The translations under genes and the position numbers were made by a program. Below the pieces are notes generated by a model. It was not told where the DNA came from. It saw only the letters and a list, made by a program, of their open reading frames with translations, and did not search any database. A DNA stretch of 64,000 bases from Octopus sinensis (Eukaryota), in assembly GCF_006345805.1 (NCBI RefSeq), contig NC_043017.1:30256001-30320000 (forward strand). Direction: 5' to 3'. This document shows positions 2,029 through 56,249 of this stretch, in pieces. How positions within the stretch are numbered: the stretch's first letter is position 1; each line of letters starts with the position of its first letter.

Positions 2029-3331
2029 TATTATATATAATTGCTTTAAGTATTAGCTCATAATCATTGTGATTTATAGAGATAATTGTCCTAGACCGCC
2101 CCCAAAAGAATGGCGTTACGTCACCTGCTGCGCACATCTTTTATAAATTAAAAACATTGTAAAAATACTTCTCCGGTGATGACTTAAGTATTCATCCAAC
2201 TACAGATATAGGATTTCTTTTAACAATCATACATGTAAGCTGATTTGGGGCTGCATCTCATTCATGAATTAACATCGTGTCACGCATGACCGCAAATATA
2301 TGTGGAGAATTCGTCCGGCCAAAAAAGGCAAATGATTACCACCTGAAACGGCTTATATAACACTTGATCCGACGACTAATTTGCAGAATTTTGGTCATTT
2401 ATTCCTAACCCAAATAAAAAGTGTATTGGAATAATCGAATGAAAATGCAAAACAATCTCTCTTGATGTATCATCTTTCGAAATTAGAGAATCGAATGGCG
2501 ACAGATAACGAATTTTTTTCTGCTACATCTGCTAAGCAGATTAAAGAGTTAGACACTACTTAATGACCACTTATTTGGAAATTACAGTGTAATTAGAGAC
2601 AGCTTCAATGGAAAATACCGGAAAATACTTGAAAATACGAGAAAATACTAAAAGAAATACAAGGAAATACTTAAAATTAATGGAAAATTCATATGATATA
2701 ATAGCGGAAGTAACAAGTTCAATATTGAGTCTCTTGAGAAGAAAATGAATATTGAAATACATGTGTCAAACAAATGTCAAATAAAGAAACGTAAATACTA
2801 AAGAAATGTAAACAGGACGAAAATAAATGCTGGTTTCTTGGAAGAGGACACAATGAAGAATATTCCAAACATAACGGAGATAGAATAACACCGAAACAGC
2901 CTCCACCAATACTTGGTATTTTAACATTCCACACAATCCAGAGCTTCAGCGGTGACTGATGTATCCTTCCATGCTTAGAGCCACATGTTATCACATACAT
3001 GCATCACAGTATGGTTAAAACGCTGGTTTTGCAACTACATGATTTCGGATTCAATTTTGCAATACTATGGGAAAATGTTTTCTTCTTATAGCTTCGAGGC
3101 GACCAATGTCTGAAGACATAATCAAATACCCAACTAACACTGTGAACACGCTTTAACAGTAAGCTAACAGGGGTATACTATACAATACGTTACCTAATAA
3201 AAATTATAATAATGATAATAATAATAATATATATATATATATATATATATATATATATATATATATATATATATATGTGGGCAGTCATCTAAAAGTTTTT
3301 GCTCTTCATGGTGCTGACATAAGTTCCTTGT

Positions 3332-3414
3332 CTTTCCTGATGAGATGACGGCATAATGCACCCTTTATTCCTTCGGAATTAGGAATATGCTGCCTTAGAA
3401 ACATGTGTCGAGAG
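3332..3414 (+). ncRNA. Decayed type I hammerhead ribozyme motif in a (TA)n-flanked module (3277-3470)
   Basis: Stem I ctttc/gagag (extended by ttcctt/aaggaa), core CTGATGA at 3337-3343, imperfect long stem II (cggcata...tatgctg), then GAAAC-atgt-GTC at 3398-3409. Confidence 0.55.
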
Positions 3415-3649
3415 TAAAGGAATTTTGTTAAAATCGTCGTTCGATTCCATTCTTTCTTTCTTTCATTTATATATATATATATATATATATATAATATATA
3501 TATATATATATATATATATATATATATATATATTGAGGATTAATACGAAGTAGCACAAAATTACATTTACTTCCTTTATATATATATATATATATATTGT
3601 TGTATTTAGGAATGCAAAACATATATATATATATTTATTTATTTATTTA

Positions 3650-3796
3650 TCTCCTTGTTTTTTCCTTTGTTCCTTTCAGTAGAAGAGCGTAGGCTCGAAA
3701 CGTAAAATACTTTCTATTCTTGAGCGTTATACTAATACATCTCTTTGTTTTGTACACCATCTGTCTTCATCATTTTGATTTTTCGTAAACTCTCCA
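3650..3796 (+). mobile_element. Short (TA)n-associated PLE-like module, family P1, with variant minimal HHR at 3674-3707
   Basis: ttt-CAGTAGA-a-gagc(gtag)gctc-GAAAC-GTA-aaa. Homologous in reverse complement to 23199-23385, 17205-17325 and 62921-63020. Confidence 0.6.
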
Positions 3797-3904
3797 TATA
3801 TATATATATATATATATATATATATATATATATGTGTGTGTGTGTGTGTGTGTGTGTTGTGTGTGTGTGTGTGTGTGTGTTGTGTGTGTGTTTGTGTAGT
3901 GTAC

Positions 3905-4495
3905 TGGTATAACAATGCACCAATATTTACTGGAACTAGCACTCGATAATATACGACGCTAGAGTAAAGCTTCACTCTATATATTATATATATTATAGTG
4001 GCAAAAATGATTGCGGGTGGTGAACATTTCATCTTAACTGTAGGAAGAACATTAAATAAATGTACAACCCAGATGTGGATAAACTAGGTCCTAGGTTTCG
4101 AAATTCCCAAATTATGTTTGATAATGTAAATTTGATTAGTTCTCATCAGCTAGATACACCTAGACAAAATTTCAAATGTCGCTACATCAATGCTAGTATT
4201 TTCACATCTGGACGCATAGCCGTTAACAGACTGAGAACAGTGAAAAAATTTTCAAAGAAAATTTATTAAATAGTGCAATATTGCTTCCCAGTATAAGAAA
4301 GCACCATCAGGTTAAAGTATATATATTGTATCGTGGTACAACAATACACTAATATTTACTGGAAATAGTAGTCGACATTATACGACGCAACGTTAAAGCT
4401 TCACTGTGTATATATACTGGCCAAAATGTTATCGGGCAGCGAACATAAAACAGTTCATTTTACCTGTAGGAAAACATTATTTAAATGTACAACCC
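3905..4495 (-). repeat. ~1.4 tandem copies of a ~430-nt unit with one decayed HHR (4084-4153, minus strand)
   Basis: 3905-4070 is repeated, diverged, at 4334-4495. Between the copies the minus strand reads ctag-CTGATGA-gaa...ttc-GAAAC-ctag-GAC-ctag (cleavage GUC mutated to GAC). Confidence 0.6.
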
Positions 4496-4555
4496 TACAT
4501 ATGTTTCTACTGCATCGATTATTAACAGCTGCAAATGCAACCTTACTATAATACT

Positions 4556-4788
4556 TATTTCTTTACTACCAACAAGGGGCTAAACACAAAGAGGACAAAC
4601 AAGGACAAACAAACGGATTAAGTCGATTACATCGACCCCAGTGCGTAACTGGTACTTGATTTATCGACCTTGAAAGGATGGAAGGCAAAGTCGACCTCGG
4701 CGGAATTTGAACTCAGAACGTAACGGCAGACGAAATACAGCCAAGCATTTCGTCCGGCGTGTTAACGATTCGGCCAGCTCACCACCTT
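4556..4788 (-). mobile_element. SINE family B (tRNA-derived head, Meta/MESC-like middle), full length
   Basis: Matches 60063-60294 in reverse complement. Flanked by the direct repeat accttactataatact (4540-4555, 4784-4799). Confidence 0.9.
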
Positions 4789-53634: not shown

Positions 53635-54329
53635 CTTGTCCGAGATAAACTTTACAGGTAAGGAAGTGCGGTCAGCCGGACCTGCCCGAGGAACGTCCAG
53701 GACGATGAAACCGTTTCGAACCGCTCTAGTGGCAGAGTAATGCTGACATGTGGGTGTATGTCGAACACCTGCTGTCGTGTGTATGAGAGACCTGCCCACT
53801 AGCTGAATCCATTGTGAAGATTGCCCCGTCGCCCTCTTTTGGCCGGGTGGGGCAAGCAATTATTATTCTTCTAGAGGCCGTAGCGAAAGAGGTAGTATGG
53901 CGGACCCCTTTTGAAAGGGGTTAAAGACAGACACTTTCCTATTAGACCTAGCCCTCGTCATCTCTGAAATTTCACTTAAAAATGAAGTTGAGGATGGAGA
54001 GAGAACTGTTGCCTTCAAGCAACTTTGTTGAAAAGTGGGTGAATGTAAGGAAGAATGGCCAGTGTGAAAGGACCAATTCTGGGAATGCACATGTGAAAAA
54101 TAAAAGAAGGGCTCTTGTCATGTTGATCAGGCACCCGTGGATTTTGTGGGGTTCCCCACGAGGACCTTAAAGTGCCCCTCCTATTGAGAGGTTTACTTTG
54201 ATTAATTTGTTATTGTTACGGTTTGTTTACTTTCGGAAATCTCATTGTATCGTCCCGCTTTTGTCTTTTATGTTGTTGCATGTGCTTTAAGGTTATTGAA
54301 TGTCAGACCTTGTGGCTAATAAAAGAATA
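53635..54329 (+). mobile_element. 3' end of Tx1/L1-clade LINE (zf-RVT region plus 3' UTR)
   Basis: VRDKLYR*GSAVSRTCPR...DETV, then WVYVEHLL...AVAKEVVW, then RMERELL.SSNFVEKW. It ends ccttgtggctaataaaagaata before a (TTC)n-like flank. Confidence 0.75.
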
Positions 54330-54433
54330 TTTCTTCTTCTGCTTCTTTTTCTTATCATCATCAACATCATTATTATTATTATTACTATTATTATTATTAT
54401 TGTTGTTATTATTGTTGTTGTTTTTATCAGTAA

Positions 54434-54840
54434 TGCGGTGAGCTGGCAGAACCGTTAGCACGCCGGCCGAAATGCTTAGCGGTATTTCGTCTGCCGCTGC
54501 GTTCTGAGTTCAAATTCTGCCGAGGTCCACTTTGCCTTTCATCCTTTCGGGGTCGATTCAATTAAGTACCAGTTACGCACTAGGGTCGATGTAAGCGACT
54601 TAATCCGTTTGTCTGACCTTGTTTGTCCTCTCTGTGTTTAGCCCCTTGGGGGTAGAAAAAGAAATAGGTATTTCGGCTGCCGTTATGTTCTGAGCTCAAA
54701 TACTACCGAGGTCGACTTTGCCTTTCTTCCTTCAGGGTCGATTAAATAAGTTTCAGGTACGCACTGAAGTCGATTTAATTGACTTAATTCCTTCTCCACA
54801 GGCTGTCCACGTGCCAAAGATTTGAAATCATTATTATTAT
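54434..54840 (+). mobile_element. SINE family B head-to-tail dimer
   Basis: Same aaata|ggtatttcg junction as 44642-45200; ends in the older tail plus (att)n. Confidence 0.85.
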
Positions 54841-55635
54841 TGTCATTATCCTTATTATTAGTAGCAGTGTTAGTATTAGTAGAAGCATCAGCCTTAGTAT
54901 TGCCGGAAGTAATAATAGTGGTGATGGTGCTTGTGGAGACGTGGTGATAGTAGTAGTAGTAGTAACAATAGCAGTATGTTCTTGCTGGGTGTAGTGGTAG
55001 CGGAGTTAACGCCTTGGATGCTAGTAGTGATGGTGGTAGTAGTAGTAGTAGTAGTAGTAGTTATTGTAGAACGGATATCCTCTCAACGTAAGTGCCGCAG
55101 CCCCACCATTTTATAGATTTATATCCCACTTAGAACCGATTTTAATTTTATTGCTAATCCTGCTCTACGTCAAAATTTAAGTACTTTGCCATAGAAATCT
55201 GTCGTATTGCTATCATGCAACCAATTGTTAATATCATATCTTTCATATCAATAGTCGTCGGCATCGACAATTTCGTCATCACCGTCGTCGTCATCAGCAC
55301 CACCACCATCATCAACGTCGTCATTATCATCGCCACTATCATTCTCAGCGGTCGTTATCATTATGCCAAGCTGTCATCGAGGCATCATCAGCATGACAAT
55401 GCATCAATATTAACGTATTTTCTTCACGTATCGATAAGAAAGTTCTAAGCCTATAGTTTGTATGTTTGATTTAGCTACCATCATTTCGACACTTCGGTAA
55501 GCAAGTTACACACACACACATATATACATATATATATATATATATATATAATAATAATAATAATATTAGGGAGTAAATCCAAACTTACAGAGAAAAATTA
55601 GATTTAGGATTAAATCTAATTTAATAGTATAAATA

Positions 55636-55825
55636 TATATATTAAATTAGAAATAGAACCACTATTAGGCAACTCAAACAGTGAAAATCATAAACCAATA
55701 CATAGAAAAAAATTAAATAATAAAAAATATAAAATTCAAAATATAAATTATTTAAATTTAAAGTTAAAATAAAAAAAATTAAGTTTCAGTTGCCTAATAG
55801 TGGTTTTATCTCTAATTTTATATAT
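55636..55825. repeat. Inverted repeat (~43-bp arms) in a (TA)n-flanked AT-rich module
   Basis: aaattagaaatagaaccactattaggcaactcaaac versus gtttcagttgcctaatagtggttttatctctaatttt. Confidence 0.8.
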
Positions 55826-56213
55826 ATATATATATACATACATATATATACATATATACATATATACATACATATATACATACATACATATATACATACA
55901 TATATACATACATACATATATACATATATATACATATATATACATATATAATATACATATATATACATATATATATACATATATATATATCATGTATATA
56001 TACTATATATATACATATATATACATGTATATATACATATATATTACATATATATATACATATATATACATATATATACATATATATACATATATACATA
56101 TATATATATATATATATATATATAGGTGAAAAGAAACAGTAGTTGATAAATATGGAAATAAAAGTCAAGGTAGAAATTGCTAAAATATGTTTATAAAAAA
56201 AAAAAAAACATTT

Positions 56214-56249
56214 CAGTACCGGTTTCAGTCATTGAGACTTTTTCAACTG
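56214..56249 (-). ncRNA. Minimal hammerhead ribozyme with compensatory U3-A8 core
   Basis: cag-TTGAAAA-agtc(tcaat)gact-GAAAC-cg-GTA-ctg. Confidence 0.65.

Follow-up and report, generated by a model that had tools for sequence, protein, structure and literature searches.

Thousands of dispersed, heterogeneous minimal hammerhead ribozymes per animal genome (2,000 to 9,000) were reported by Cervera and de la Pena (2014; PMC4209133). Their consensus runs from a U-rich flank through NNN, CUGANGAH, G..C, GAAAN, a palindrome, NUH, and NNN into an AU-rich flank, and the same paper describes a dimer model, an extra base, a U3-A8 core, opposite-strand pairs 100 to 700 bp apart, and low activity in vitro. 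For Penelope-like elements (PLEs), targeting of (TA)n and inverted, 5′-truncated copies are known, with the function of the hammerhead called unclear (Craig 2021; PMC8557442). Frangieh (2024; PMC11167929) described AT-rich cleavage and internal initiation, saw no effect of hammerhead mutants on insertion in vitro, and found that protein is required for cleavage by an Anolis PLE hammerhead. A further relative is the non-LTR (long terminal repeat) retrozyme, a short noncoding type I unit that is likely moved by PLE protein, mostly has tandemly repeated motifs of the canonical type I form (PMC7229834), and reaches up to 120,000 copies in axolotl. Here, we examine hammerhead motifs in 64,000 nt of Octopus sinensis DNA (GCF_006345805.1, contig NC_043017.1, positions 30,256,001 to 30,320,000 of the forward strand), called the window below and numbered from its first letter. 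The general picture is already known and ordinary for animals with PLEs; what is new is a repeat family in which the conserved A at core position 6 is replaced by U (the U6 family).

The motifs share with the minimal hammerheads of PMC4209133 a type I topology, a base after A9, a tiny palindromic stem III, U-rich and AU-rich flanks, and the U3-A8 variant, as well as their occurrence as many unrelated families per genome, mostly solo with some opposite-strand pairs. All sequence searches for modules were confined to the window, which has 35.6% GC, 95 (TA)6+ runs, and two abundant clusters of repeats resembling short interspersed nuclear elements (SINEs). An original prediction had named nine hammerhead sites. 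The order of stem I, core, stem II, GAAA, palindromic stem III, NUH, and stem I′ was recognizable at all of them, and the short palindromic stem III that had been claimed was present throughout in type I topology (the descriptors required a palindrome, for which the shuffles control). A strict descriptor (perfect CUGANGA or UUGANAA, GAAA, U16.1-H17, an even palindromic stem III, at least 3 pairs in each of stems I and II, and 0 to 2 extra bases) returned four matches (3337+, 26038+, 32247−, and 56246−). By comparison, 300 global and 300 block dinucleotide shuffles averaged 0.05 matches and never gave more than 1, and the reversed window gave none. With a relaxed, scored descriptor and 120 shuffles, there were 4 matches scoring at least 20 (mean of 0.05 to 0.10 and maximum of 1 in shuffles), 9 scoring at least 15 (0.8 to 1.3), and 17 scoring at least 11 (mean of 4 to 5). 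Both descriptors were designed with the cited sites already in view; an earlier descriptor that permitted zero bases after A9 recovered none of the cited sites in the window. Within the window, motif density exceeds that of dinucleotide-shuffled controls.

Motifs at 26033, 53015, 32200, and 56214 stand on their own, and those at 4084, 23290, and 3332 are likely genuine. Motifs at 3674 and 8806 are individually at chance level and so rest on family homology, which both have. Perfect core boxes are found at four sites (3332, 26033, 32200, and 56214, the last with a U3-A8 core), the others being decayed or variant: single core changes occur at 53015 (U4C), 4084 (U16.1A), and 23290 (A6U) and double changes at 3674 (U4A and A6U) and 8806 (A6C and A15.1U). 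One unpaired base lies between A9 and 10.1 at 26033, 32200, 23290, 3674, and 8806, while the extra base after A9 is missing from 53015, 4084, and 56214 and doubled at 3332. Most motif copies in the window are decayed, and none of them forms a tandem array able to yield a cleaving dimer in cis. Altogether, these sequence features support a reading of the motifs as genuine minimal hammerheads, type I, of the PLE pseudo-LTR kind. Three further descriptor matches (1980, 14775, and 31853), each with two core changes and no family support, were treated as chance.

An all-against-all blastn search of the nine modules linked only 3674 and 23290, plus one marginal match (E of 0.034), and a self-blast of the window brought copies at 17149 to 17294 and 62911 to 63035 into the same family, for a total of four. 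The 8806 pair resembles this family at 25 to 26 of 33 motif positions and at only about half of the tail positions. The window thus contains seven hammerhead sequence groups if the 8806 pair is merged into the 3674/23290 family and eight otherwise, a number that agrees with the predicted "at least seven unrelated families," although most are single copies here. The word "family" can be justified only for 3674/23290, for both inverted pairs, and for the tail duplication of the 4084 module (3905 to 4070, with a second copy at 4334 to 4495, ~430 nt apart), in which the hammerhead precedes the downstream copy only. In both head-to-head pairs (8550 to 8953 and 25845 to 26122), the 3′ ends face outward. 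A (TA)6+ run lies within 200 nt 3′ of 6 of 10 cited motifs, compared to 11.9% of background positions (P = 4 × 10^-4), and within 200 nt upstream of 2 of 10. Restricting the comparison to six stronger motifs, one per group, leaves three with (TA)6+ on the 3′ side (P = 0.025). In the U6 family and its 8806 relative, four of six copies end cleanly in a TA repeat, and a fifth ends in a decayed one. Both the outward-facing pairs and the 3′ TA enrichment match the inverted, 5′-truncated copies and the (TA)n or AT-rich targets of PLEs. The SINE-like clusters comprise 50 intervals (some of them microsatellite only) and 12 intervals; internal TA/CA repeats in one of them inflate the TA background. A peptide from one SINE-like repeat has 79% identity to an Argonauta hians protein over 38% of the query.

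Core position 6 is U in all four window copies of the U6 family (3674, 17149, 23290, and 62911) and C in the 8806 relative. Every entry examined in Fig. S3 of PMC4209133 has A6, and the U6 family breaks that core; we therefore class it as hammerhead-like rather than as a canonical minimal PLE hammerhead. Because of this change, the usual CUGANGA descriptor would miss the family. A fixed noncanonical core base in a very abundant family is the most unusual point of the window and was missed in the original prediction. Stem I of the family has only 4 bp, three of them A-U, and its closing pair is C-G, as opposed to G-C in the 8806 relative.

We assessed abundance by aligning contigs from public DNA (4 of 24 listed runs, from four related organisms) to positions 23202 to 23855 at 80% likeness. 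In the bin that contains the motif, summed contig depth reached 6.2, 6.1, 1.0, and 3.0 million in the four organisms, with single-copy flank contig depths of 35, 39, 4.3, and ~42 (the last uncertain). Depth peaked on the motif; tail values were lower by factors of 10 to several hundred, and depth collapsed 5′ of ~23390. Large sets of loose contig ends begin at both motif edges (23290 and 23323 to 23324), from which it follows that other subfamilies share the motif alone. Another set at 23383, where ~7 letters agree before the ends become mixed and AT-rich (agreement of 0.44 to 0.46), hints at a defined 5′ end. Among the variants listed (40 of 112), the only one inside the motif affects N7, the one free core position, at a share of 19 to 45%, and a change at 23289 restores the C-G closing pair of stem I. 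Of 15 copy pairs compared, 12 showed greater likeness in the motif than in its flanks (P < 0.05). Extrapolated to a genome of a few gigabases, four to six copies per 64 kb would be consistent with an order of ~10^5. The six copies counted by nhmmer are those from which its model was built, and the count holds by construction. The U6 family appears 10 to 100 times more abundant than the counts in PMC4209133, whose descriptor needs the conserved core. Beside the 23200 to 23390 copy, a second, lower-copy repeat at ~23530 to 23760 reached depths of up to 2,000 to 5,000 in three runs.

Tentatively, and at somewhat less than even odds, we propose that the U6 family is an octopod Penelope-dependent element of ~10^5 copies with a fixed A6U change, whose motif is selected either as a protein- or Mn2+-assisted ribozyme or as a noncatalytic recognition fold. 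Some points limit the evidence on the U6 family. The motif-to-flank depth ratio of 0.7 × 10^5 to 2.4 × 10^5 in the four organisms is one of depth, which is not copy number, and the low tail depth is partly due to private changes of the 23200 to 23390 copy. No A6 row occurs among the variants listed (40 of 112), so that a minority A6 class is possible, and the status of U6 as the majority base rests on reading those variants as ranked by share, plus the four window copies. The pairs in the copy-pair tests are not independent, and their alignment was anchored on the motif.

For the window as a whole, we consider it likely that the motifs are 3′ ends (pieces of pseudo-LTRs) of at least seven PLE families, left behind as short copies, either solo or head to head, and predicted to be mostly inert, and that the U6 family is a nonautonomous element copied in trans. 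A PLE protein combining reverse transcriptase (RT) and GIY-YIG endonuclease would nick (TA)n or other AT-rich DNA, and target-primed reverse transcription would begin ~45 to 190 nt downstream of the hammerhead. An early stop or a strand switch could then leave either one short copy or an outward-facing pair. Because its palindromic stem III would need another copy to pair with, a solo copy would not cleave in cis. In this scheme, the U6 family would be a nonautonomous element of ~190 nt that the same machinery has copied in trans to an order of 10^5 copies, and its hammerhead shape is likely kept for recognition by that machinery with weak cleavage, since insertion reportedly does not require cleavage. 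Several observations weigh against the explanation by PLE 3′ ends. Five of the groups are represented within the window by one hammerhead each and so yield no consensus. The 25845 to 26122 pair and the 53015 motif have no (TA)n within 1 kb, and in an unbiased set of nine descriptor matches scoring at least 15 (three of them probably chance), three have (TA)6+ on the 3′ side, so that the prediction that many motifs abut (TA)n fares better on the cited motifs than on this set. Predicted homodimer folds resemble a dimeric hammerhead only for 53015 and 56214, the U6 copies being unlike it. None of the modules is linked to a coding PLE; only the 56214 motif lies near a coding remnant, and a PLE profile run over the whole window found no other below an E of 0.27.

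That remnant is truly of PLE type. An 83-amino-acid peptide (56505 to 56753, minus strand) retrieved 253 proteins at E ≤ 10^-3 in phmmer, 10 of the 11 long relatives scanned carry RVT_1 and/or a C-terminal GIY-YIG domain, and PF26215 occurs in 15 to 28% of the members of its nearest Atlas clusters. The RT pieces were delimited by tblastn and the PLE profile (Table 1). Neither method gave a GIY-YIG match downstream of 56472, and the RT copy is a fragment. Pfam returned nothing significant for 13 window peptides, the remnant among them; a word-seeded homologue search with the remnant found none, and no PLE relatives were found among viral contigs. Neptune/Nematis-type endonuclease-bearing PLEs, for which (TA)n targeting is described (PMC8557442), are a near system; the window contains neither a full element nor an endonuclease. 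A stretch at 13144 to 13594 (plus strand) that looked by eye like a GIY-YIG end was supported by neither Pfam nor the PLE profile.

Whether the 56214 motif is this remnant's own 3′ end, brought near by an internal deletion, is in our judgment evenly balanced. It lies on the same strand, 223 nt downstream, with a TA-rich array next to it. However, the gap beyond the end of the RT match at 56472 contains no endonuclease trace or other PLE protein similarity, where ~260 amino acids (thumb, linker, and endonuclease) continue in relatives, and adjacency means little given some ten motifs per 64 kb and the tendency of PLE copies to pile up beside each other (reviewed in PMC6765202). The original prediction of a hammerhead at the 3′ end of a real PLE RT remnant was thus right about the RT, the link being one of position only, and the "likely PLE partner" that it offered for the whole set is at best putative: the remnant could be tied to no module, and the window contains no autonomous element.

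We think it unlikely, if worth considering, that hammerheads with the U6 core are natural variants that remain active, self-cleaving as dimers with help from PLE protein or Mn2+, and that selection preserves this cleavage across subfamilies. The motif is common to subfamilies with different flanks, core positions other than the free N7 hold among the variants listed, and the stem I pair is swapped in the 8806 relative. A natural A6C hammerhead cleaves at ~0.3 per min in 1 mM Mn2+ (PMC3088659; PMC7151607), and the Anolis PLE hammerhead needs protein to cleave (PMC11167929). On the other hand, A6U would be expected to weaken self-cutting, as position 6 changes, A6C included, lower activity in Mg2+ (PMC3088659; PMC7151607). 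The short, A-U-rich stem I and the predicted dimer fold speak against activity, and one weak master copied many times would give the same pattern. Natural A6C and U4C variants (Perreault 2011, PMC3088659; PMC7151607) likewise have position 6 or 4 changed in an otherwise normal core, but the reported A6C is a single phage motif, whereas position 6 is U here across a very abundant animal repeat family. A U6/C6 pattern had no matches in prokaryote genomes and viral contigs and four in metagenomes, where it forced a pyrimidine at position 6 and so says nothing about U6/C6 frequency. Two of these, on animal-like contigs (L001, 1420 to 1449, and L002, 2466 to 2495), fit minimal hammerheads with C6 and U6 and paired stems; the other two (L003 and L004) look like chance.

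It is improbable that the modules are instead monomers of non-LTR retrozymes, spread via circular RNAs, rather than truncated ends of coding PLEs. They are short noncoding units, the U6 family has a 5′-end hotspot, one contig per run in three runs has a 98-nt back-joint, the tail at 3905 to 4070 is duplicated at 4334 to 4495, and an origin of retrozymes from PLE pseudo-LTRs has been argued (Li, Clavereau, and Pollet, 2026 preprint). Nevertheless, retrozymes combine tandem arrays and mostly canonical motifs (PMC7229834) with circular RNAs, whereas the window has dispersed solo or inverted minimal motifs of PLE type and no tandem array of hammerhead units, and its copies continue past the cleavage site to (TA)n. 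A chance origin of most motifs, as look-alikes within AT-rich repeats, can be set aside almost entirely, since the strict matches largely refute it for the top sites and the weak sites fall in a family that shares its motif more than any other part, even though relaxed matches scoring 11 to 16 also arise in shuffles, the descriptors are post hoc, no hammerhead is among the Rfam matches listed for the window (150 of 335), and chance is possible singly for 3332 and 4084.

The largest survey of such hammerhead variants is reportedly that of Lunse et al. in 2017. Outside that survey, some supplements, and Repbase/Dfam, in all of which a prior description is possible, we found no account of the U6 family in the literature on octopus or cephalopod hammerheads, A6U, or the motif letters. 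The cephalopod literature compared consisted of PMC13282606, PMC8967140, and PMC6962438: the main text of the 2026 octopus repeat annotation (PMC13282606) contains neither "ribozyme" nor "hammerhead," and 235 Rfam hammerhead hits are given for giant squid (PMC6962438). The original prediction of a large, under-annotated ribozyme mobilome fits the presence of several poorly annotated groups and overstates the surprise, the picture having been published (PMC4209133; PMC8557442); broadly, our results are a modest extension of a known phenomenon to an octopus genome. The role of PLE hammerheads is unsettled, and an abundant family that keeps the fold with a changed core is a natural test of it. 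If true, either an active variant or a recognition fold would bear directly on what these hammerheads are for. The family also suggests that counts obtained with descriptors could greatly underestimate the hammerhead-like motifs of genomes.

Table 1. Hammerhead modules and PLE remnants in the window
Feature	Position	Strand	Remarks
Module between two (TA)n runs	3277–3467	+	Single copy in window
Hammerhead in 3277–3467	3332–3414	+	Perfect boxes, 5-bp stem I, 54-nt stem II, wobble-palindromic stem III
U6-family copy	3641–3796	+	Hammerhead 3674–3707 (U4A, A6U); (TA)18 at end
Hammerhead and 3′ tail	3905–4153	−	Hammerhead 4084–4153 (U16.1A); tail enters (CA)n/(TA)n
Head-to-head inverted pair, 70% alike	8550–8953	.	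Both 3′ ends in (TA)n; from self-blast
Right arm of 8550–8953	Hammerhead 8806–8840	+	C6, A15.1U; distant U6-family relative
Left arm of 8550–8953	8569–8712	−	First core box lost
Decayed U6-family copy, absent from original prediction	17149–17294	−	blastn E of 4.5e-5 to 3660–3779
Best U6-family copy, ~190 nt	23200–23390	−	Hammerhead 23290–23323 (A6U only); TA/CA repeats at end
Head-to-head inverted pair, 87% alike	25845–26122	.	No (TA)n nearby
Right arm of 25845–26122	26033–26078	+	Intact minimal hammerhead
Left arm of 25845–26122	25892–25937	−	Mirror hammerhead; C-to-T in stem III
Intact minimal hammerhead module	32017–32251	−	Motif 32200–32251, 8-nt palindromic stem III, ~185-nt tail, then (TA)33
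Hammerhead with U4C	53015–53059	+	6-bp stem I, 8-nt palindrome, no (TA)n nearby; predicted homodimer is a dimeric hammerhead
Hammerhead with U3-A8 core	56125–56249	−	Motif 56214–56249, 90-nt tail, then TA-rich array
PLE reverse transcriptase remnant	56472–56783	−	Late palm and thumb start
Upstream piece of 56472–56783 PLE RT	57429–57611	−	SINE-like insertions between
Decayed U6-family copy, absent from original prediction	62911–63035	−	blastn E of 3.7e-6 and 6e-16 to 3674 and 23290 copies

Other repeats in the window were noted alongside these modules. Three two-copy repeats (36451 to 36641 and 38329 to 38520, 26795 to 26989 and 47345 to 47538, and the inverted 11490 to 11631 and 12025 to 12166) had no hammerhead found in them. 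Peptides at 47846 to 48178 (minus strand) and ~52120 to 52640 look by eye like remnants of non-LTR retrotransposons; the parts tested (47846 to 48130 in the word-seeded search) gave no significant Pfam or homologue match. A near-perfect palindrome of ~170 bp at 32466 to 32639, ending at (TA)8 and lacking a hammerhead, may represent another family inserted head to head with its tail only. Between 39174 and 40284, nested inverted repeats (39174 to 39344 with 40117 to 40284, and 39341 to 39665 self-inverted) with the look of a miniature inverted-repeat transposable element surround a TTAGGG-like core at 39491 to 39547 and are interrupted by a SINE-like copy. Finally, a 400-bp repeat that carries a terminal hairpin and is presumably Helitron derived occurs twice, at 849 to 1255 and at 20894 to 21305.

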